Positions 15,587 to 52,167 of a stretch of DNA of 64,000 bases are shown piece after piece; within the stretch, counting starts at the first letter, position 1; every line of letters starts with the position of its first letter. Both the position numbers and the translations under genes were made by a program. The notes under the pieces were generated by a model. That model was not told the DNA's origin. It did not search any database and saw nothing but the letters and a program-made list of their open reading frames with translations. Source of the stretch: Escherichia coli (GTDB lineage Bacteria > Pseudomonadota > Gammaproteobacteria > Enterobacterales > Enterobacteriaceae); NCBI RefSeq assembly GCF_003018235.1, contig NZ_CP027437.1; one strand, 5' to 3'.

Positions 15587-16171
15587 TTACTCCGGATATT
15601 TAAAAATTACGTAGGTATGCGAAGGGCAGAGTTTGTTAAGCACACACTCGACAACGGTGTCGCCCCAGATACGCAGTGCGGAATCACAGGGATCACCACA
15701 TGTCATCCAGGTGGTGTTGGTGGCAGCTGGCATGTTGACCTGCCAGTAATACCGCCATTCCGGCGCATTCACCGCGTCAGTACAGGCCGATGAGCAGGTG
15801 AAGGTGCTTTTGTCGTATCGCGTGATGGTGGCATCTGGTCTGCCCAGGGCAGCAAGCTGTGCAAGATAAAAATCCTCGTTGATGCCGCCCGCCAGGTTAA
15901 CCTTCGCATCCAGCCGTTGCTGACGCTGGCGAAGGGTCTGTGTCCCTGCGGGAATACATTCATCCGGCAGGCCGCACAGACGCTCCCAGCGGTTTATCAG
16001 TTCGGTGGTGGTGCGCGGATCCAGCTCCCGCATCAGGGCATCCGCACGCTGATGAACACGGGTTAATGACGGTGCTGCACCGGCAATCGCCGGATCGCTG
16101 GCTGACCACGCCGGACCGGGCGGCAACAGTGCTGACAACAGACGGATGTAATCATCGTTTGTCACGTCCAT
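15587..16171 (-). CDS. Mu gp48-like tail/baseplate protein (YmfQ-like)
   Basis: 194-aa ORF between baseplate J and tail fibre; order matches the Mu/e14 baseplate cluster. Confidence 0.65.
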
Positions 16172-17220
16172 GAAATCGTCCCCAGAACCGCCAGTTCGTT
16201 TTTCGCAATGGAGATATTGTCTGCCGGTGCAAGCAACTGATGGCTGTATTCCCCGTTCGCACCGGAAATCGCTTCACTGATACGCGACACCTTCAGCTCT
16301 CCCTGCGGATAACCATCACGCAGCAGGAACGAACGCAACTCCGCGGTAATGGCAGCCCGTATTTCTGGTGTGTCCGGCGTCACGCGGATATGAAAATCCA
16401 CTTTATGCGCCACCGGCCTGAATACATACAAATCAGAGCCTGCCACCGGGGCCAGTGGCTCAATGTGTTGTCTTGCAGCCGTTTCCGTTGATTCTTCCGG
16501 AATGGGATTAATCAGGTCACTGCTGGCAATCATCACACCGACAGTCCCCGTTCCCATCCAGTGGCGGTATGTCCATGCACGGGTAATGCCTGGCACTTCT
16601 TTAGCCCAGACGACATAGTCCCCGTCAGCCCCGCCCTGAGGCGTCCAGTAATACCGCTCAATGACGCGGGCGCGCCACGTTTCCAGCTCTTCAGTATCAA
16701 ATCCGCCTGTAAGGGTGTCAGCCACACCGGAAGACGGCAGACCATTCACCGGTGTGACCAGGATTAATGCCGTACCGTCGTCAGCGTTACCGACCGCACC
16801 TGCACTTGAGCAGGCGATCGGCACGCGCAGGACTCCACCTGAGCTGGTTGCATCAGAAGTTGCCGTGTACTGCACCAGGTCATCGCGCTGAATAACACTC
16901 CCGGCGGTCACCTTCAGGCCATCGCTGACACCTTCCCAGCGCATATACCCGCTGGCAGACGTGGCCCCCTTGCGCGGACACCGTTTCATCGCAGCATGTC
17001 GCGCCAGCCAGGACTCATCGCACAGGTCAGGCAGCATGTTCATTGCCAGATAATCGATGTAACCGTAAACCGTATGCAGCGCCGCCGCATACACCTTTGC
17101 CCGCACGTCTTCATCCATGCGCCGGAGCGTGTCGCTGACGTCCAGCCTGGCGAATAAATCGTTACGGAGCATACTGATATTTTCTGCCAGCGTCGGGCGC
17201 TGAAATTCACTGTCCGCCAT
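16162..17220 (-). CDS. Baseplate J-like protein (Mu gp47 family)
   Basis: 352-aa ORF in conserved position; overlapping starts and stops with neighbours. Confidence 0.7.
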
Positions 17221-20656: not shown

Positions 20657-22564
20657 TTATCGTGGAAAACGAAAAGGGGAATACCCCACATCGTGCGTGA
20701 TTTTCATCAGGGGATCGGCTTTGCCCGGTACATCAATTATCTTCATACCTGGCGGAGCATTCTCGAACGTAACTTTCAGCTCGCTGTGCTGTGTCATGGA
20801 AGAAGATGGATTCAACAGCGGAACATTGGGTTTGTACTGACTCAGGCTGGCCTGATACTGCTCGTACTCTTTACGATCAAAAAAAGGCGTCCAGTCTGAA
20901 GCCAGAAACAGCCCTTTATTATCCAGCCAGTTAACCGTATCTTCAGGAACAACACTTTCCAGAGTATCTTTAACCGGCTCATACATCAGGGTTCCCAGAA
21001 AACCATATACCCCGGCCTTCCCGATAAAGCCGCGGCCTTTCCCCATCAATCCCGTTTCTGCCGATACCTTCCCCAGCGTACGCATCTCTCTGGTCACTGC
21101 GGTAATGGATTTGGTAACGTCAGCAACCCATTTGGTTGCCATAAACAGGGCAATCGCTTTCAGAACAGTTTCCCATCCCCCCATCGCCTGCGCCGTTTCA
21201 TCCACCACGTGCCAGACTTTTTTTATGACAGGACCTACGGTTTCCCAGTTATCAATAATGAGGTAAGCGCCACCAACCAGAAGAGCAATCAGCCCCTTAG
21301 CAGGCGTCATATTCATCACACCGCCGAGAACTTTCATAATTCTGGACAAAGAGCCTGCAGCGGCTCCCACCGTCAGTAAGGCCAGACCGATTTTAGCAAT
21401 GGTCTTAACGAGCTCCGGGGTTTCACGGACAAACGTTCTCACTTCCTCAAGGAGCGGTTTTACCGCTTCAAGACCATCATTAACCTCAGGAAGAAACGTT
21501 CCCCCCAGCGTGGAAGAAATGGCATCAAGTTGATTTTGCAGAAGTAAAAGCTGGTTTTCCGTCGTCGCTGCCCTCGAAGCATATTCCTTCTGCATCGAAC
21601 TGCCATACTGCTGGGAATCCGCAACCCGTCTGAAGTTGGTACGCAACAAATCAAGGTTAGTCAGCAGAGGTGCTATCGCGCCCAGAGACTCTTTCCCGAA
21701 CAGGGCATTCAGCACAGCTGCCTGTTTTTCTTTGGGCACTTTAGCCATCGCATCCAGTACAGACAGCATGGTTCCCCGGGCATCTTTCTGCATATCAGCA
21801 GCTAATTTCTTCGGATTGATCCGCAGAAAACGTAATGCCTGTTTCTGCGATTTTGTCGCGGAATTTCCCGCGGTCAGGGAAAGCATGAAGTTCTTGATCC
21901 CTGTGGCGGCAATTTCTGACTCCACGCCCATCCCGGCAATGGTTGCCCCCATTGCCGCGATTTCGCCGGAAGCCACACCTGCAACACCACCTAAAGGACC
22001 AATACGCGTAACAATATCGGAGATTCTCTTCGCATTCGCCGGGCCGGTATTACCAAGGTAGTTGATTTTGTCAGCCAGCCCGGCCACTTCATCCTGCGTC
22101 ATATTAAACGCAGTACGCCACTGGGCCATCATCTGCCCGGACTCTTCAGCCGTGGTATCAAAGGCCACGCCCATCTTCACCGCATCAGTGGCAAACTGCA
22201 TCAGTTCATCACGTGCAATCCCGGCCTGACCGCCAGCCGCCACAATTTCCGCGATCCCGTCTGCAGACATGGGAAGCTCAGTAGACAAAGCGCGTACCTG
22301 CTCCGTCATGGCCTTAAACGCATCCGGCGTATCCAGACCGTCTACCACTTTGCGGACATCAGCCATCTTCGATTCAAGGGTGATGGCTGATTTTACAGGG
22401 AGTGCCAGTGCCCCCATTATTGCAGTACCCGCCCCGGCAGCGCCCAGAGCAAGGCTGGAGACTTCTTTCTGAAACCCCTTAAGCTGACGCTGCATACCTT
22501 TAAGCGGGCCGGACAGCCTGTCAACGGCGGTGATGATGGCTTTCAGCTGAAAATTATCAGCCAT
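20657..22564 (-). CDS. Tail tape measure protein
   Basis: 635-aa Ala/Gly-rich largely helical protein with hydrophobic segments, located between tail assembly chaperone and baseplate genes. Confidence 0.8.
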   Translation of the reverse strand: MADNFQLKAIITAVDRLSGPLKGMQRQLKGFQKEVSSLALGAAGAGTAIMGALALPVKSAITLESKMADVRKVVDGLDTPDAFKAMTEQVRALSTELPMSADGIAEIVAAGGQAGIARDELMQFATDAVKMGVAFDTTAEESGQMMAQWRTAFNMTQDEVAGLADKINYLGNTGPANAKRISDIVTRIGPLGGVAGVASGEIAAMGATIAGMGVESEIAATGIKNFMLSLTAGNSATKSQKQALRFLRINPKKLAADMQKDARGTMLSVLDAMAKVPKEKQAAVLNALFGKESLGAIAPLLTNLDLLRTNFRRVADSQQYGSSMQKEYASRAATTENQLLLLQNQLDAISSTLGGTFLPEVNDGLEAVKPLLEEVRTFVRETPELVKTIAKIGLALLTVGAAAGSLSRIMKVLGGVMNMTPAKGLIALLVGGAYLIIDNWETVGPVIKKVWHVVDETAQAMGGWETVLKAIALFMATKWVADVTKSITAVTREMRTLGKVSAETGLMGKGRGFIGKAGVYGFLGTLMYEPVKDTLESVVPEDTVNWLDNKGLFLASDWTPFFDRKEYEQYQASLSQYKPNVPLLNPSSSMTQHSELKVTFENAPPGMKIIDVPGKADPLMKITHDVGYSPFRFPR

Positions 22565-22972: not shown

Positions 22973-23325
22973 TGGTAATCCCCTTCTTCACCGTGGAACT
23001 CAAGATCAACCGTGCCTTCTTCGGCATTATGGTTCGCTTCGCCGTGCAGCCAGGCAGACGACAGTACATAGACCTGACCGTTCGCCAGCTCGGCAGTGAT
23101 GGTCATCTCATCAGACGAGGTGATTTTGCTCACCGGAAAATTCTTCGGCACCTTGAAGGTCCCTTTGACATAGGGCGCACGGTGAGTTTCCTTGCGGTCC
23201 ACTGAACCGTCCAGGCCGATGATGTCATCATTGACCGTCCTGTTCATGGGCACCTCAATGCCGCCGGTCAGCGATAGCTGCTGACCGTCAATTTTGAAAT
23301 AACAGGTTCCCCCGATACGGGCCAT
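22969..23325 (-). CDS. Contractile tail tube protein
   Basis: 118-aa ORF directly downstream of sheath gene. Confidence 0.7.
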   Translation of the reverse strand: MARIGGTCYFKIDGQQLSLTGGIEVPMNRTVNDDIIGLDGSVDRKETHRAPYVKGTFKVPKNFPVSKITSSDEMTITAELANGQVYVLSSAWLHGEANHNAEEGTVDLEFHGEEGDYQ

Positions 23326-24821
23326 TATGCAGACTCCTCTGAATACTGAAGACGGAACTGGTTAACCACGGCAAAGACACGCAACTGGTTAACATAGTCA
23401 GGCGGGAACAGCGTGTTCAGGCGGTTCGGATCGCTGGCATCACGCTCCACAACCAGGTACTGCTTAAACAGTTCGTAGTTTTCCACGATCCCCGCACGCT
23501 CAAGCTGACGGTAGGTTGCCAGCAGTTCCCCTTTGATCACCGCCGGGGTGACAATCGCCTGACCGGGACCAAAGCGGGTACCGTCACTGGCAAGCTTGTG
23601 ACGCCCGTACTTACTGGTAATGACGGATTTCAGTTTGCGCAGTACATACGCGCTGGTATGCAGTGTCTCACTGTCGAGGTAGCTGTTATCCGCAACCCCG
23701 TAAGCGTTTTTCCTGTACGTGGTGACATCACGCTGAATGCGCAGTACCCCGCTTTCGACATACGCCGTTGCCACGCCATGAGACAGCAGGGTCTGTTGTT
23801 CTGTCATCGTGAACCGTTTCCCCTTCGGCGCAGGCAGCATACCCACCATCTCACCGGTCTGCGTGGGACGTGCCGGATCGTTGCGGATAAACACCGCTGC
23901 GCGGGCGGTACGGCTGGCTGCCAGCTCGTCGGCAGGCGTCTGGGTCTCTTTTTCGTACCCCGCCAGGGTAATGTGCTGCTGGTTAAACTGGTCACCTGCG
24001 TTCACCAGTTCTGACAGTGTGCCGGCCTTTGCCGTATACACATGACCATACAGCTGACGCGCATAGCTCCAGCGACCGCTGGTATCGTTCATCTCGGTCA
24101 CCAGCGTGTTAACAGAGGCCGTGTCGTTGAACGGCAGACCGATATAATCAAACGGCTCATCCGCCATTGCAGCCACCGCGCCGGTGAGAACCGGAGCGCC
24201 CGTTCCGGCGGTCCCCGTCGCCACGGCAATCTGTACGCCCGCTGGCAGCACTTCGCCCCCACCGAAGCCGTAGTAATTGAGGCTGACAGGAATTTCATTC
24301 CCGCAAAGCCCCTTATGGCGAGCGGTCAATGTAACCACACCAGCCGAAGATGAGGCCGTAAACGGCAGGGCCGGAACGGCATTGATGGCATCTTTGATAC
24401 TGCTGGCAATCGTCGCGACGTTATCGCCGTTGGTCACCGGTGCCTGCACGCGGGTACGTCCCACATAAACATTCACCGTGCCGGTTTCGGTTGCTGCCCC
24501 GGTCACCGTCAGCGTAACTGTTGCCGCCGCGCCTGTGGATTCAGGAACGGCAATCACATACAGCTCGCCAAACGGGTCGGTCTGGCGATAAGCCTCGACC
24601 ATACGCGCCAGCTGACTTCCCGCACCACAAATCTGGCGTGCATAGTCTGCCGACGGCATCAGTACCAGACTGTTGGCAACAATCTCTGCACCGTTATTGG
24701 CATGACCAATCAGCAGCGATGCTCCGCTGTCCTGTGCAGTATTCGCCGCCTGGTTATCCATTTCCGCATAAAACAACGGAACCAGCGTATTCGACGGAAT
24801 GGTGTTAAAGCTTATCGTCAT
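23325..24821 (-). CDS. Contractile tail sheath protein
   Basis: 498-aa ORF; size and position (sheath-tube-chaperone-tape measure) typical of myovirus tails. Confidence 0.8.
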   Translation of the reverse strand: MTISFNTIPSNTLVPLFYAEMDNQAANTAQDSGASLLIGHANNGAEIVANSLVLMPSADYARQICGAGSQLARMVEAYRQTDPFGELYVIAVPESTGAAATVTLTVTGAATETGTVNVYVGRTRVQAPVTNGDNVATIASSIKDAINAVPALPFTASSSAGVVTLTARHKGLCGNEIPVSLNYYGFGGGEVLPAGVQIAVATGTAGTGAPVLTGAVAAMADEPFDYIGLPFNDTASVNTLVTEMNDTSGRWSYARQLYGHVYTAKAGTLSELVNAGDQFNQQHITLAGYEKETQTPADELAASRTARAAVFIRNDPARPTQTGEMVGMLPAPKGKRFTMTEQQTLLSHGVATAYVESGVLRIQRDVTTYRKNAYGVADNSYLDSETLHTSAYVLRKLKSVITSKYGRHKLASDGTRFGPGQAIVTPAVIKGELLATYRQLERAGIVENYELFKQYLVVERDASDPNRLNTLFPPDYVNQLRVFAVVNQFRLQYSEESA

Positions 24822-35449: not shown

Positions 35450-35908
35450 CGTCTGCGCAGATCGTTAGATTCGGCAACATTGTAACTGGATAAGGAATAG
35501 AAAACCTTGGAATTTTAAGAAGAAACTGATTGATCGATTATTTAACGAGCGAACACATCCATACACCCCAGACGGGTACTACGACAAAGGCCATGAAATA
35601 AGTAACTTTTGCTTGAATGTTTTGCATTTCGCTTCCTTAGCAGTCCGATAAGTACTGTCTGCTCATCCAACCTAACGAATGTAGATCAGAATGACAAGTC
35701 TTTCGCGCTAATTTCAATTTGATATCTGTTCGTAAACATGATGGCGCGAAATATTACGCATGAAGTGCTTCTACATCAACATAAAAGTTACTTTTTTTGT
35801 GTTCACAGCATGTAAAGTAAAAGCCCCGCACGATGGCGAGGCTGTTAATTCTTTGTCGACCAACAAAGCTATGGCGACGATATCAGATTTACATGAAATA
35901 TAAGCGTT
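35450..35908 (-). promoter_or_regulatory. Probable late promoter / Q-utilisation region between Q-like gene and lysis cassette
   Basis: Long non-coding AT-rich gap in the position of lambda PR'-qut; no specific site assigned. Confidence 0.3.
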
Positions 35909-36598
35909 TCAGTTCGGTTTTGCAAGACTTACGTGCAAACTTGTCGCCTTTTGTTGTGAACGTGATCGCGTTACTGAGATAAGCGCACCGCTATCGAGTC
36001 GCATAAAGCAGCTACGCATTGCCAACCAGTGAGGCAGGTATGTCTCTGTCCAGGTGGATTTCGCCACGCCAACCAGTTCCGCCAGCTTCTGGTATTCGTA
36101 GGCATCTTTCCCGACCAACCCTGCTTTGACATCCTGCGCTGCCAGCCATATCAGCTTCTTCAGGCGCTCCATGGTCTTGCCTGCCACCCTCTTCGCGCCG
36201 AGATACCCCCTGAATTCAGACCACGCCCACTGGGTGATCGCCACCTGGTATTCAAAGCTGATGTTTTCACTGTAACTCCACAGCAACCACGCTTTCTGAT
36301 GTTCTTCGAGAGACAGAACCGCGCGGCGCCATGAAGATGTTGAGAACTCAACCTGGCTGACCAGTGCAATGGATGAACCTTTTGCGTACGACTGCTTACC
36401 GGAAATCGGCGGATTATCCAGCGTAATCATCTTGCCCGTTACCTCATCCAGAATGCGCGGCTTCTTTCGTTTATATGTACCAGTATCAAATTGTGCATGC
36501 TCCAGCCAGGCTTCAAGCTGGCCTTTCGTTGCTCCGCTCAAATCAGCAGTAGCCACAATGAGTTGCTCGCGGACATACTGTAAATATTGGGTATTCAT
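35909..36598 (-). CDS. Putative late-gene antiterminator (Q-like)
   Basis: 229-aa ORF located between rusA and the lysis cassette, the canonical Q position; not similar to lambda Q, assignment positional. Confidence 0.5.
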   Translation of the reverse strand: MNTQYLQYVREQLIVATADLSGATKGQLEAWLEHAQFDTGTYKRKKPRILDEVTGKMITLDNPPISGKQSYAKGSSIALVSQVEFSTSSWRRAVLSLEEHQKAWLLWSYSENISFEYQVAITQWAWSEFRGYLGAKRVAGKTMERLKKLIWLAAQDVKAGLVGKDAYEYQKLAELVGVAKSTWTETYLPHWLAMRSCFMRLDSGALISVTRSRSQQKATSLHVSLAKPN

Positions 36599-39583: not shown

Positions 39584-41110
39584 TCAAAAATAAACCTCAC
39601 CATCAACCATATATTTGAGAGTACTTATCGCCTGCCGGGCGGATATTGTTTTCATTAAAGGATAGTGTTTAAAAACAATGCCATTCATAAAATAGATATC
39701 ACAGGTTTTATTATCTGTATTGATTATGATTTTTTCGAATGTTTTATAGGCAAGTGTACGACATAGCTCTCGCCCATTTTTACTGGTTAAGTCAATAGCA
39801 TGAAAATCACCAAGTGAGCTCACCGCTTTACTCTTCAAAGTTTTTAATGATACAGAAGCCCTTCGTAATTCCTTATCTAATACTCTGATTTTTTCTGCTA
39901 TAGCGGTAACTTCAGGCGCAACAGATAATGCAGCAATTAAATTATTAATTTTCATATGGAGCTCAATAATTCTCAACTCTAAAGTTTCATTAGCATCTTT
40001 CTTGTTTTCAACTGGTTGGATTTTACTACAATTAAAAAGCAACTCATTAATGATATTATAATCAACCAAATCTCTCTTTATTGATGGCCTGCCACATCGA
40101 TGCAGTCTTCTCATCGGACAAACATAATAGCCATGCAAACTTCCAGATACCGCATGAACAATCATGGTATTACCACAAGCCTCGCACTTCATAACTGTTC
40201 GAAGTAGATTTATCAACATAGGATTTTTGCTACTATTGCTAATACCAAAAGGTGCCAACCGAATTTCCTGCACAGCGTAAAACAAATCATCTGATATGAC
40301 TCTGGGATAATAGCCAGCGATTTCACTTATTCCTTTACCTCTTGCACGATATGAAGGTACGCATATACCTATCAGAGCTTTATTCGCTAATAATTTTTCA
40401 ATTACAGAAGGCCCCCATGCACTTTCTTTTCCTGAGAAATTCTTTACAGCATGATCATTTAAATACTTGGCTATTGCATTCAATGAGCGCCTTTCCATCC
40501 TGAGTTTAAAAATTAGCTCAATAGTTTTCACCCTGTCGGGGTCTGGAACAAAAGCCGTTCTTTTGTCATCTAAGGAGAGCCATCTCGGACAAGACGCCGT
40601 CATAATCGTACCTGATTCCAGTGCATCCTGCCGTTTTTTCTTCCATGATAATTTAACCCGACTTGACTTTATCTCGCTTTCTTCATTTGCCCTTTGTGCT
40701 ATAAGTATGGCTTTTATTAATGAATATGGCTCATTCAAAGAGTCAATATTATAGACTGTATTGTCGCAAAGAGTTATAACATCAATACCGTGATTCAAAA
40801 TCAATTTCAGACGTTCAATCGCTTCACCGACTTTTTCTCTTGAAAGTCTGTCCAGACTTTCAACTAACAATGTAGTTCCTGGCAATATATAACCATGCTC
40901 TATAGCATCTAAAAATTCCGAAAAAGCTCCTGATTGTGCATGCTTTCCTTTGAATGCACTTAATCCTAAATCTTCATATGTTATGGTATCAAGATAATAA
41001 TCACTATTTACCTTTAACCATTCAGCAATAAGTCTTCTCTGTCGGTTTAATGAGTCGCCAGACATCTGACCTGGTGATGAAAATCGCATATATGCTATGG
41101 CTTTTTTCAT
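39584..41110 (-). CDS. ybcK: Large serine recombinase (YbcK-like, 508 aa)
   Basis: N-terminal resolvase catalytic region (AIAYMRFSSPGQ…SLDRLSR) and C-terminal Cys-rich zinc ribbon; size equals DLP12 YbcK. Confidence 0.8.
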   Translation of the reverse strand: MKKAIAYMRFSSPGQMSGDSLNRQRRLIAEWLKVNSDYYLDTITYEDLGLSAFKGKHAQSGAFSEFLDAIEHGYILPGTTLLVESLDRLSREKVGEAIERLKLILNHGIDVITLCDNTVYNIDSLNEPYSLIKAILIAQRANEESEIKSSRVKLSWKKKRQDALESGTIMTASCPRWLSLDDKRTAFVPDPDRVKTIELIFKLRMERRSLNAIAKYLNDHAVKNFSGKESAWGPSVIEKLLANKALIGICVPSYRARGKGISEIAGYYPRVISDDLFYAVQEIRLAPFGISNSSKNPMLINLLRTVMKCEACGNTMIVHAVSGSLHGYYVCPMRRLHRCGRPSIKRDLVDYNIINELLFNCSKIQPVENKKDANETLELRIIELHMKINNLIAALSVAPEVTAIAEKIRVLDKELRRASVSLKTLKSKAVSSLGDFHAIDLTSKNGRELCRTLAYKTFEKIIINTDNKTCDIYFMNGIVFKHYPLMKTISARQAISTLKYMVDGEVYF

Positions 41111-41364: not shown

Positions 41365-41697
41365 TTAATGTGGTGTGCTTCGTGACAATAAATTAATAAC
41401 CAACACACCGGCACAAATCAACATCATGCCTATAATGGCTGGCAGGTCCAGCCGTTGGCCGAAAAATCCCCATGACAGTAAGCTAATCAGGACAATACCG
41501 ACTCCTGACCAGATAGCATAAGCAATCCCTGTAGGAATATAAGCCAGCGTCTGAGCTAATAACCAGAATGATGCACAATAACAAATAATTGTACCAACAG
41601 ATGGCCATAACCGTGTAAAACCTTCTGAAAACTTCATTAAGGTTGTACCAATGACCTCTGCAAGTATTGCACCACCAAGATAAATATAAGGATTCAT
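41365..41697 (-). CDS. emrE: SMR-family multidrug efflux protein EmrE
   Basis: 110-aa four-TM protein starting MNPYIYLGGAILAEVIGTTLMK; matches EmrE. Confidence 0.9.
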   Translation of the reverse strand: MNPYIYLGGAILAEVIGTTLMKFSEGFTRLWPSVGTIICYCASFWLLAQTLAYIPTGIAYAIWSGVGIVLISLLSWGFFGQRLDLPAIIGMMLICAGVLVINLLSRSTPH

Positions 41698-41764
41698 AGC
41701 ATATTCTTTCCTGTTCAAACTGGAGAGAATTGTACTACAGTTTGAACTCAACTCACCTGTTTCA

Positions 41765-42067
41765 TCATTGTGTACCCATTGATGTTCTTTTATATACCCT
41801 CAATACCCGTTTCATCGCGGCACTCTGGCGACACTCCTTAAAAATCAGATTCGTGCTCACCTTTCCTTCCCGTTCTTCTCTGGTAGCGAACCGGTAATAC
41901 ACCGTTCGCCAGACCTTACCATCAACGACCAGGATTCCTGCCCGCGCCATTTTAGCCGCAGCCTGATTTATGCTGGTTACGGTTGCGCCTGTTACCGCGG
42001 CAACGTCCTGTGCACAGAAGCTCTTATGCGTCCCCAGGTAATGAATAATTGCCTCTTTGCCCGTCAT
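41765..42067 (-). CDS. Ren-like protein
   Basis: 100-aa ORF immediately downstream of P, the position of lambda ren. Confidence 0.5.
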   Translation of the reverse strand: MTGKEAIIHYLGTHKSFCAQDVAAVTGATVTSINQAAAKMARAGILVVDGKVWRTVYYRFATREEREGKVSTNLIFKECRQSAAMKRVLRVYKRTSMGTQ

Positions 42068-42765
42068 ACACTTGCTCCTTTCAGTCCGAACTTAGCTTTG
42101 ATTTCTGCGATCTTCGCCAGAGCCTGTGCACGATTTAGAGGTCTACCGCCCATGACAGGAAGTTGTTTTACTGGTTCAGGTATCGCCTCACCACGGTTAA
42201 TTCGCGCGGTCATACAGGACAGTTCATCGGCAGCCTTGCGCCGTAATTCCGCGTCAGTCAACGCATTGGCCCGCATGTTCTGATACAGGTTGGTAACCAG
42301 CCAGTAGTGCGCGTTTGATTTCCACGGATAAGACTCTGCATCCGGATACAGACCACGCTTCCGGCAATACTCGTAAACCATATCAACCAGCTCGCTGACG
42401 TTTGGCAGCCCGGCGGTAACGGATGCTTCTTCCCGGCACCATGCAACAAACTGCCCGGGTGATGGCAGAAATGGTCTATTCTGCCGACGGGCAACACGCA
42501 TTCCGGCGCTCACCTGTTCCATCGTGGTGATCCCGTTTTCCCGGAAAGCCAGAACCCACTGGCGGCGGATTTCGTTCAGTTCGTTCTGGTCACGATTAGC
42601 CAGGCTCGCCGGGAAAGTTGCCAGTAACTGGCTGAATACACCGTTGATTATCTGCGCTACCTGCTGTACCTGCGGCTTTTCGTCGTACTGTTCCGGCATG
42701 TTGTTGGCGATCCGACGCATCTGCTCACGGTCAAAGTTAATCATCTGTGCGGCGATGTTTTTCAT
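42064..42765 (-). CDS. Replication protein P (DnaB helicase loader, lambda P-like)
   Basis: 233-aa ORF following O; length and sequence consistent with lambda P. Confidence 0.8.
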   Translation of the reverse strand: MKNIAAQMINFDREQMRRIANNMPEQYDEKPQVQQVAQIINGVFSQLLATFPASLANRDQNELNEIRRQWVLAFRENGITTMEQVSAGMRVARRQNRPFLPSPGQFVAWCREEASVTAGLPNVSELVDMVYEYCRKRGLYPDAESYPWKSNAHYWLVTNLYQNMRANALTDAELRRKAADELSCMTARINRGEAIPEPVKQLPVMGGRPLNRAQALAKIAEIKAKFGLKGASV

Positions 42766-43781
42766 AGATCCACCCCGTAAATCCAGTCTGTGTTTGTCAG
42801 GTCGAGTTTTGGTTTGCTAGCTGTCACGCCTGCCTGTTGCTTGTTACGGTTGATTTCGAGTTGGGTCCACTTGTCGCGGAGTTTGGCCGGACTTAGCACG
42901 TTACCGGACCAGAAGTTGTCCTGGCATGCCCAGCGGAACAGCACGCACATGTCGCGGTGGTTACGTCCGTCACGTTCACGCATCAGGCGGATATCGTTAG
43001 CCCACCCTGCAAAATTCGGTTTTCTGGCTGATGGCGCGATGGTCTTCACCATGTCAAACATCCACTCTGCGGCGGTCAGGTCTTCTGCTGTCCCCCACTT
43101 GCTGCCGCTCTGAATTGCAGCATCCGGTTTCACCACAGGAAGATCGTTTTCTGGTTGGTCAGAGGATTCGCCAGAATTCTCGGACGAAAAAGGTTTTATA
43201 TTGTCTTTTGTTAGTTTGTCTTTTGTGTTTACCTGATTCGGGTAAACGCCTTTACCTGATTTGGGTAAACTTTTTTTACCTGATTCAGGTAAATTTACCT
43301 CTTTCAGGTAAACTTTATTTTTCTTACCTGATTCGGGTAATGTTGACCATTCACTGACCACATTATTAATGCCGGTATTCCGCCCGCTCTGAATAAAAAT
43401 CCCACGCTTTACCAGAACACTTTTTGCAGCAGAACACTTGTGCGGCAATATCCCGGTTAATTCGGAAAGTTGCTCGTTGCTAACCCAATCCAGTTTTTTA
43501 TTAAAGCCATATGTTTTGCGCATGACAGCCAGAAAGACCAGAAGCTGGTGCTGTGTTAATCCGGCCAGCATCACAGCTTCCAGCAACTCATTTGCAATGC
43601 GCGTATAACCATCATCGAGATCTGCCACGCGCGGCTCCTTTTGTGCCGCATCCGGCACTGGAAAATTGAATATCTCAGCAGTGTTTGCCATAATTCCTCC
43701 CGCAATGAGTGTGTTACGATTTGCACCTGAAAGTCGGTTCTGTTCCAGCAGACCGGCTTTCGCCATTTCTGAACCTGTCAT
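42762..43781 (-). CDS. Replication initiator O, with ori iterons embedded in the coding sequence
   Basis: 339-aa ORF; the internal repeated peptide LPESGKK corresponds to the DNA iterons. Confidence 0.8.
   Translation of the reverse strand: MTGSEMAKAGLLEQNRLSGANRNTLIAGGIMANTAEIFNFPVPDAAQKEPRVADLDDGYTRIANELLEAVMLAGLTQHQLLVFLAVMRKTYGFNKKLDWVSNEQLSELTGILPHKCSAAKSVLVKRGIFIQSGRNTGINNVVSEWSTLPESGKKNKVYLKEVNLPESGKKSLPKSGKGVYPNQVNTKDKLTKDNIKPFSSENSGESSDQPENDLPVVKPDAAIQSGSKWGTAEDLTAAEWMFDMVKTIAPSARKPNFAGWANDIRLMRERDGRNHRDMCVLFRWACQDNFWSGNVLSPAKLRDKWTQLEINRNKQQAGVTASKPKLDLTNTDWIYGVDL
43229..43341. repeat. Replication origin iterons: five ~19 bp direct repeats (TTACCTGATTCGGGTAAAC-like, each internally palindromic)
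   Basis: Copies at about 43229, 43251, 43277, 43295 and 43323, inside the O gene as in lambda ori. Confidence 0.8.
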
Positions 43782-44617: not shown

Positions 44618-44721
44618 AACAACCTCCGTGGTTAATTTGAATCAAGATTAAAACCATGGTTGTTTTTAGTCAACAACCATTTTCGTTTGATGAAATAAAA
44701 CCTTGGTTGTACATTTGGACT
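44618..44721. promoter_or_regulatory. Divergent immunity promoter/operator region (OR-like) with three related operator sites
   Basis: AAAACCATGGTTGTTTT (about 44650-44666), CAACAACCATTTT (about 44671-44683), AAAACCTTGGTTGTACA (about 44697-44713) share the CAACCA/TGGTTG half-site. Confidence 0.6.
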
Positions 44722-50713: not shown

Positions 50714-51056
50714 GGCCTGTCAGTTTCTTAAGATATCCAGACCAACCGCCACCAACTGGATACGAACAGGCCGCCTACAGGCAACACGTAAAGATCCAAC
50801 CAAGTCAAAATCTCCTTACCTCACAACACGGCAAGCCTGCATTGCGGCGCTTCAGTCTCCGCTGCATACTGTCCAGGTGAGCGCGGGTGATGGCATAACA
50901 GAGGAAAGAAAATGTCACTCTTCCGCAGAAATGAAATATGGTATGCCTCGTATTCGCTCCCGGGCGGGAAACGAATTAAGGAATCTCTTGGCACAAAGGA
51001 CAAGCGGCAAGCTCAGGAGTTGCACGACAAGCGAAAAGCAGAACTCTGGCGAGTAG
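50685..51056 (+). CDS. xis: Putative excisionase (Xis), overlapping int start; C-terminal extent uncertain
   Basis: HTH-like N-terminus ([26 protein letters not shown]) immediately upstream of and overlapping int. Confidence 0.5.
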
Positions 51057-52075
51057 AAAAGCTAGGGGATTTACCTGATGTCACTTTTGAAGAGGCCTGC
51101 CTAAGATGGCTTGAGGAAAAAGCTGATAAAAAATCTCTCGATTCAGATAAAAGCCGGATTGAGTTCTGGCTTGAACATTTTGAGGGTATAAGGCTTAAAG
51201 ATATCTCGGAGGCAAAGATTTACTCTGCTGTAAGCAGAATGCATAACAGAAAGACGAAAGAAATATGGAAACAGAAAGTTCAGGCCGCCATCAGGAAAGG
51301 TAAAGAACCGCCTGTTTATGAACCAAAGCCAGTATCAACTCAGACAAAGGCAAAGCATCTTGCCATGATAAAGGCCATTCTCCGTGCTGCAGAACGCGAC
51401 TGGAAGTGGCTGGAAAAAGCGCCTGTCATCAAGATACCAGCGGTCAGAAACAAGCGAGTCAGATGGCTGGAAAAGGAGGAAGCAAAACGCCTTATTGATG
51501 AGTGCCCCGAACCACTGAAATCTGTCGTCAAGTTTGCGCTGGCAACTGGTCTGAGAAAGTCGAACATCATAAATCTGGAATGGCAACAAATCGACATGCA
51601 GCGACGAGTTGCCTGGGTGAATCCAGAAGAGAGCAAATCAAACCGCGCCATTGGTGTGGCGCTGAACGATACCGCCTGTAAAGTGTTGCGTGATCAAATA
51701 GGCAAGCATCACAAATGGGTGTTTGTACATACCAAGGCGGCTAAGCGAGCAGATGGAACATCAACGCCTGCGGTCAGGAAGATGCGCATCGACAGCAAGA
51801 CATCATGGCTATCAGCTTGTCGTCGTGCAGGAATTGAAGATTTCCGTTTCCATGACCTCAGACACACCTGGGCAAGCTGGCTGATTCAGTCAGGCGTCCC
51901 ATTATCAGTGCTTCAGGAAATGGGCGGATGGGAGTCCATAGAAATGGTTCGTAGGTATGCTCACCTTGCGCCTAATCATTTGACAGAGCATGCGAGGAAA
52001 ATAGACGACATTTTTGGTGATAATGTCCCAAATATGTCCCACTCTGGAATTATGGAGGATATAAAGAAGGCGTAA
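50912..52075 (+). CDS. int: Tyrosine integrase (lambda Int family; DLP12 IntD-like)
   Basis: 387-aa ORF with C-terminal catalytic signature (…[15 protein letters not shown]…VRRYAHL) adjacent to argU. Confidence 0.92.
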
Positions 52076-52090
52076 CTGATTGAATTGTAA

Positions 52091-52167
52091 TGGCGCGCCC
52101 TGCAGGATTCGAACCTGCGGCCCACGACTTAGAAGGTCGTTGCTCTATCCAACTGAGCTAAGGGCGC
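52091..52167 (-). tRNA. argU: tRNA-Arg (anticodon UCU)
   Basis: Reverse complement reads GCGCCCTTAGCTCAGTTGGATAGAGCAACGACCTTCTAAGTCGTGGGCCGCAGGTTCGAATCCTGCAGGGCGCGCCA: cloverleaf with TCT anticodon and CCA end. Confidence 0.93.

Follow-up and report, generated by a model that had tools for sequence, protein, structure and literature searches.

The window, a 64-kb stretch of Escherichia coli DNA, carries a prophage at approximately 13000-52170, and the integrase gene of this element (50912-52075) abuts a tRNA-Arg(tct) gene (52091-52167). The prophage looks complete because genes for the integrase, Q, and structural and tail components (terminase, portal, capsid, tail sheath, tape measure, and baseplate) are all carried. 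Its lambdoid early region is paired with contractile-tail genes, and the following tail genes are present:

23325-24821: tail sheath gene
20657-22564: tape measure gene
16162-17220: baseplate wedge gene

The early region includes a minus-strand gene coding for an O-type replication initiator, and five short dyad repeats (iterons) lie inside this coding sequence. The features of the locus are given here in the order in which they are read in the O sense, with reference to the four lambda iterons (ITN1-4) where positions correspond:

42762-43691, minus strand: O-type initiator gene with an ATG at 43691 and a GGAGG Shine-Dalgarno sequence; 309 aa, MANTAE...
43324-43340, minus strand: iteron 1, TTACCCGAATCAGGTAA; extra AT-distal copy, 29 bp before iteron 2; encodes LPESGK
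43295-43311, minus strand: iteron 2, TTACCTGAAAGAGGTAA; arms intact, center divergent; other frame (VYLKEV); positional equivalent of lambda ITN1
43276-43292, minus strand: iteron 3, TTACCTGAATCAGGTAA; positional equivalent of ITN2; encodes LPESGK
43252-43268, minus strand: iteron 4, TTACCCAAATCAGGTAA; positional equivalent of ITN3; encodes LPKSGK
43229-43245, minus strand: iteron 5, TTACCCGAATCAGGTAA; positional equivalent of ITN4; abuts the AT-rich element; read as VYPNQV
43186-43228, minus strand: AT-rich, A-strand-biased element, ACACAAAAGACAAACTAACAAAAGACAATATAAAACC..., with two ACAAAAGACAA repeats 15 bp apart
43158-43185, minus strand: imperfect inverted repeat GTCCGAG-N14-CTCTGAC, right of the AT-rich element; read directly from the sequences
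42064-42765, minus strand: P-type helicase-loader gene, matching Pfam PF06992 (Phage_lambda_P, E 1e-61) and overlapping the O stop codon

The array resides in a minus-strand ORF of 339 aa (42762-43781) that matches the Pfam family Phage_rep_O (PF04492, E 1e-33). The match covers residues 51-145 of this ORF, and iteron 1 begins three codons later; in the numbering of the 309-aa protein, residue 115 is the last of the domain and residue 118 the first of iteron 1. The ATG at 43691 is the most likely start of O. The O proteins of SEN34 and Klebsiella phage GZ7 begin at MANTAE, as does the 309-aa O of the window, and the phage and E. coli database records that we examined annotate the longer ORF, to 43781. 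A PDB sequence search with the 309-aa protein found no solved structure of a relative.

Upstream of O are YdaT-type and YdaS/Cro-type genes, and beyond them an S24/HTH repressor gene is transcribed divergently. Where the longest repressor ORF begins, just beyond the cro-like gene, there is a palindrome (ATGGTTGTT-N7-AACAACCAT, 44656-44680; 9-bp arms) that is a possible operator. The true start of the repressor is probably further inside this ORF, since in the E. coli SK1144 record the S24 peptidase gene annotated there is shorter (690 nt). On the other side of the replication genes are a ren-like gene (41765-42067) and, downstream of it, an ORF for an SMR (emrE-like) transporter (41365-41751) and one for a ybcK-like recombinase (39584-41110, 508 aa), an arrangement that is shared with phage PhiR34_1.

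A first-pass annotation had reported five direct repeats at 43229-43341 inside O, each forming an internal palindrome TTACC…GGTAA, and both statements hold. Five 17-bp dyad repeats with 5-bp inverted arms (TTACC-N7-GGTAA on the plus strand) occupy 43229-43340 in the Phage_rep_O ORF, and the arms-only pattern has five perfect matches in the 64-kb window, all within this interval. A search of the window with TTACCTGATTCGGGTAA, allowing up to three mismatches, likewise gave matches confined to the five array sites, where 0.16 matches are expected by chance and the observed count was reached in none of 100 shuffles. The repeats also resolve as periodic by computation. A repeat-family search returned a single family of five copies spaced 23/24/19/29 on the plus strand, or 29/19/24/23 bp in the O sense. 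Tandem Repeats Finder also detected the array and, because the spacing of the repeats is uneven, split it into overlapping periods of 23, 19, and 43, making the repeat-family and pattern searches the more informative of these methods for the array.

A replication origin inside the O initiator gene is a textbook arrangement. The lambda origin is composed of four 18-bp iterons and a 38-bp AT-rich sequence within O (PMC3349717). In the phage 434 record, four gpO-binding sites are labeled 'ori lambda' at the matching place in O, with an O-sense spacing of 20/24/23 bp. Since the 19/24/23 spacing of the four proximal sites of the window parallels the 20/24/23 spacing of lambda/434 ITN1-4, iterons 2-5 are the positional equivalents of these sites. 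None of the four lambda/434 iterons corresponds in position to iteron 1 (43324-43340), which matches the window consensus perfectly. The arms of iteron 2, whose center is divergent, are identical in the Klebsiella phage copy.

In the window as in lambda/434, the array is placed inside O just past the N-terminal DNA-binding domain, the iterons are dyads of 17-19 bp, the P gene comes next, homology extends through the AT-rich element and right arm (91%), the C-terminal domain of O is 98% identical, and a pO-like antisense promoter overlaps the O start codon. The earlier proposal that the arrangement is that of the lambda origin is therefore borne out by the in-O position, the proximal spacing, the AT-rich element, and the P gene match, with four sites at the ITN1-4 positions. 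The likeness fails for the fifth site, which is extra, and for the iteron sequence, which is TTACCCGAATCAGGTAA in the window versus TCCCTCAAAACGAGGGA in lambda. In addition, the gene upstream of O is of the YdaT type rather than cII, and no match to the window iteron consensus was found in the lambda/434 O gene. Because the iteron sequence is not that of lambda, the specificity of this origin is predicted to be different, and the origin appears to lie outside the rep-lambda specificity group (lambda, 434, 21, and the Stx phages), whose TCCCTCAAAACGAGGGA iterons are recognized by lambda O.

The features by which a lambda-type origin can be recognized are found at this locus. There are at least three to four dyad repeats of about 17-19 bp that are about 19-24 bp apart, they lie inside a PF04492 initiator gene after its N-terminal domain, an AT-rich element is directly downstream of the last iteron, and a helicase-loader gene is directly downstream of O. 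Thus, with a probability of about 0.9, we propose that the five repeats are the iterons of the lambda-type replication origin of the prophage and are embedded in the part of O that codes for its linker. This reading draws on the anatomy of the array, on homology, on conservation at the DNA level, and on the occurrence of the same origin in isolated phages, which are observed directly.

The two halves of O have different affinities. Over its C-terminal 129 aa, the window protein matches 434 O at 98% identity (96% for the DNA of that part), whereas the N-terminal domain is only 49% identical to that of lambda/434. Given this difference and the different iterons, the origin appears to sit at the junction of two exchangeable modules, one for specificity and one for interaction with P. 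In phage D2 (L002, OM475427.1, locus 501-1522), the O gene is annotated as two CDS. In this phage, 255 nt in the part coding for the N-terminal domain match the query and are 98% identical to the window type, and the iterons are of the lambda type. The D2 O gene is a chimera across the specificity module and is possibly broken.

The expected AT-rich unwinding element is present on one side of the array only, directly downstream in the O sense. The stretch at 43184-43228 has 27% GC, with 24 A versus 9 T on the O-sense strand, and the AT-rich element together with the inverted repeat that follows it is 91% identical to 434 over 75 nt. Immediately past the last iteron, the window and 434 both read ACACAAAAGACA..., and at the position of GTCCGAG-N14-CTCTGAC in the window, phage 434 has GTCAGAG-N14-CTCTGAC. 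The first 28 nt of the element are identical in P22 and HK97. In a duplex-stability profile, the AT-rich element scores -50.0 kcal/mol per 45-mer, compared with a mean of -61.9 (sd 5.0) for the O gene. A segment of the iteron array itself ties with it (-49.9 kcal/mol), and these two are the least stable in the gene, so stability alone does not single out the site of unwinding. By analogy with lambda, duplex opening would take place in the AT-rich element at 43186-43228.

A short motif within this element has a wide distribution. The sequence ACACAAAAGA(C/A)A right after the last iteron (43217-43228 in the window) is common to six lambdoid origin types: lambda/434, the window type including Klebsiella phage GZ7, P22, HK97, N7, and Sf101. 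The motif is shared irrespective of iteron sequence or type of loader gene (loci L001, L005, L006, L007, L094, and L095, and the window). Phage phi80 carries a diverged version, GACACCCAATACAAGAAC..., and SEN34 has no exact match to ACACAAAAGA after its last repeat.

The first-pass annotation also described the repeats as translating into a repeated LPESGKK peptide, which is correct for three of the five copies. Iterons 1, 3, and 4 are read in one frame as LPESGKK, LPESGKK, and LPKSGKG, whereas a second frame is used for iterons 2 and 5, giving VYLKEVN and VYPNQVN. A very improbable explanation is that LPESGKK is a protein-level tandem repeat in a flexible O linker, retained for the sake of the protein and with no role of the DNA in cis. 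The three copies that encode LP(E/K)SGK in a single frame would fit this idea, as would the location of the repeat region between two folded domains. However, the use of another frame by two copies (VYLKEV and VYPNQV) indicates that the conserved unit is a DNA motif and not a peptide, and each unit is a DNA palindrome, which is meaningless at the protein level.

Patterns of variation also argue against retention for the protein, in that spacers are more variable than repeats and third codon positions in the repeats are nearly invariant. Among 70 gapless, near-identical IMG/VR copies, 4 of 85 sites are variable in iterons versus 7 of 27 in spacers (Fisher p 0.004), and variable third codon positions number 1 of 27 in iterons versus 58 of 258 elsewhere in the gene (p 0.02), although these p-values are indicative only since the sequences compared are closely related. 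The IMG/VR scan yielded only relatives that are 97-100% identical, which suits counts of polymorphism and copy number rather than deep comparison, and the divergent relatives were drawn from a phage collection instead.

Among the divergent relatives, the Klebsiella phages GZ7 and 6 LV-2017 and one E. coli prophage have DNA that is about 80% identical and carry five sites with the same 29/19/24/23 spacing, with the three AT-proximal sites matching the consensus perfectly. The layout is kept in these relatives despite a different O C-terminal domain and a DnaC-like loader. Since two reading frames are used, the repeats vary less than the spacers, and the ~80% identical relatives retain the five-site layout, selection acts on the DNA of the repeats, and the peptide repeat is a by-product.

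O genes with unrelated linker peptides also carry palindromic repeats of their own at the matching place, which further disfavors a role at the protein level. Lambda/434, phi80, P22, HK97, SEN34, N7, and Sf101 each have their own dyad repeats at the matching position in O. Across eight phages, the iteron sequence co-varies with the type of O N-terminal domain, which points indirectly to recognition of the sites by the cognate O. A comparison with the lambda and phi80 origins, as the first-pass annotation had suggested, thus finds dyad iterons specific to each phage. The repeats at the matching O position in phages other than lambda/434 are as follows:

phi80: TTCCCGAAAACGGGAA, annotated as gp15 sites
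HK97 and SEN34: TTAGC-N7-GCTAA
N7: TGTCTC-N7-GAGACA
Sf101: TGTCAC-N7-GTGACA
P22: TTACC-N5/6-GGTAA-like

The arms of the window iterons (TTACC/GGTAA) and those of HK97 and SEN34 (TTAGC/GCTAA) are one symmetric base apart.

Palindromes in a coding region might instead form RNA or DNA hairpins, such as attenuators or terminators in the O transcript, or they might be sites for a regulator other than O. A single strand of the array does fold far better than shuffled sequence (z -6.2). However, we rejected this strong fold as evidence of structure, because repeated palindromes pair with each other by construction and the fold of the array is therefore uninformative. The individual units have arms of only 5 bp and a 7-nt loop, and the sites co-vary with the O N-terminal type and not with the immunity region. 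A terminator scan reported nothing in the array, and Rfam gave no match at the array locus. We consider hairpins or sites for another regulator to be exceedingly improbable.

Three other groups of phages help to place this origin. The Stx phages P27 and 933W have an extended origin with six iterons, in which two extra AT-distal copies lengthen the O linker (PMC7466680). The extra iterons of P27 bind O weakly in vitro, yet they are needed for the establishment of a P27-derived plasmid, and the extra Stx iterons have been proposed to raise the local O concentration or to stabilize the O-some (PMC7466680). Three iterons are enough for lambda growth according to Moore et al. (1981), as cited in PMC7466680. 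The window and the Stx phages both have a four-site core that is extended on its AT-distal side, which is the characteristic of an Stx-type extended origin. The window has a single extra copy, 29 bp away from the core, where the Stx phages have two, and the Stx iterons are of the lambda sequence type.

Phage P22 gene 18 has the closest N-terminal domain among classical phages (60-65%), has related TTACC...GGTAA-like arms, and is followed by an AT-rich element whose first 28 nt, as noted above, are the same. Compared with those of the window, the four P22 sites are less regular and shorter in the center (15-16 bp). Gene 18 also has a C-terminal domain unrelated to that of the window O, and its partner gene (gene 12) codes for a DnaB-type helicase in place of P. 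Thus, the window origin is not of the P22 gene 18/ori type. The Klebsiella phages GZ7 and 6 LV-2017 share with the window the iteron consensus, the five-site 29/19/24/23 layout, an N-terminal domain that is 82% identical, and the start of the AT-rich element. They differ from it in that the O C-terminus is unrelated, the loader is DnaC-like, and the two distal sites are more degenerate. The origins are unannotated in both Klebsiella phage records. The iteron type of the window is distinct from those of lambda, 434, 21, phi80, P22, and HK97.

If the array operates as lambda-type origins do, dimers of the O N-terminal domain would bind each dyad 17-bp site and assemble an O-some, which would strain and open the adjacent AT-rich element at approximately 43186-43228. 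The lambda-like C-terminal domain of O would then recruit P bound to host DnaB, and bidirectional theta replication would follow induction of the prophage. By analogy with the Stx phages, the fifth site (43324-43340) would be an auxiliary distal site, probably stabilizing the O-some or raising the local concentration of O. In this scheme, the binding of O and the opening of the duplex are inferred from lambda, and the function of the fifth site from the Stx phages.

The same origin is found in isolated phages, and homologous O genes carry the repeats. Isolated phage PhiR34_1 has an O ORF 100% identical to that of the window (42762-43781); its record gives K-12 MG1655 as the host, and its P, ren, emrE-like, and ybcK-like genes are in the order seen in the window. 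O ORFs that are 97-98% identical are found in about a dozen further isolated phages, among them Turner, 4A7, Perceval, 1W, 3W, and members of the PhiR series. A 271-bp ori segment is present at a coverage of at least 80% in 2392 of 5426 complete E. coli genomes (~44%), at up to five matching places per genome.

The five-site layout is found in 77 of 80 IMG/VR relatives, and the three exceptions are deletions between repeats. These and a chromosomal example are as follows:

IMG/VR L013: 23-bp inter-iteron deletion; O frameshifted
IMG/VR L020: 95-bp inter-iteron deletion; O frameshifted
IMG/VR L035: 24-bp inter-iteron deletion, in frame; four sites left
E. coli DETEC-P793 (L008), chromosomal: 23-bp deletion; O frameshifted; flanking IS elements

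These deletions, most of which frameshift O, arose through recombination of one iteron with another. The array is therefore recombination-prone, and its loss accompanies decay of the replication module.

Such cases raise the possibility that the array in the window is a true origin by descent but a relic, in a defective prophage whose iterons no longer fire or only titrate O. Decay is frequent among lambdoid prophages at argU, as in DLP12, and inter-iteron deletions that frameshift O do occur in DETEC-P793, L013, and L020. However, the replication module is intact in the window, as seen in the array, O, and P, and isolated phage PhiR34_1 has an identical O ORF. Moreover, the integrase, Q, terminase, portal, capsid, sheath, tape-measure, and baseplate genes are retained. 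A relic is thus quite unlikely, and the origin is probably active.

This origin would be a common but so far undescribed sequence variant of the lambda type. A full-text literature search with the iteron string and its sub-strings on both strands found no paper with the sequence, and a search for descriptions of the phi80 and phage 82 iterons yielded no paper on the iteron type of the window. The iteron sites are annotated in none of the database records examined for this allele, whereas the sequence itself is present in thousands of public records. If our assignment is correct, the replication origin has been placed for a family of lambdoid prophages that is very common in E. coli. The locus also adds a natural pair of iteron and O N-terminal domain, together with a five-site layout, for the study of how lambdoid initiators recognize their sites and how modules are exchanged. 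The understanding of how lambda-type origins work is unchanged by this finding.

A more ambitious proposal, which we regard as doubtful, is that the locus represents a distinct O/ori specificity class in which a fifth, AT-distal iteron is obligatory, that its arrays serve in trans as sinks for O protein, and that TTACC versus TTAGC is a specificity switch. Arrays could act in trans as O sinks since approximately 44% of E. coli genomes carry the class, at up to five places each. Replication interference and incompatibility have been described for cloned ori-lambda iterons. If arrays do act as O sinks, replication interference or incompatibility might arise between co-resident or superinfecting phages of one replication type. 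If the single-base difference in the arms relative to HK97 and SEN34 (TTACC versus TTAGC) does govern recognition, it would constitute a simple specificity switch.

Antisense to O, the plus strand carries a promoter-like sequence, TTGAAT-17-CATAAT, at 43666-43694, whose CAT corresponds to the O start codon (43689-43691) on the opposite strand. Phage 434 has TTGAGT-17-CATAAT at the matching position, where its oop RNA starts. A stable hairpin (43728-43761, z -3.5) without a U tail is located after the promoter-like site. Thus, an oop-like antisense RNA overlapping the start of O is plausible. Elsewhere in the prophage, Rfam reports a match to the Hfq-binding sRNA isrJ on the minus strand at 35820-35893 (64.9 bits versus a gathering score of 37), which adjoins a Q-like antiterminator gene at 35909-36598.
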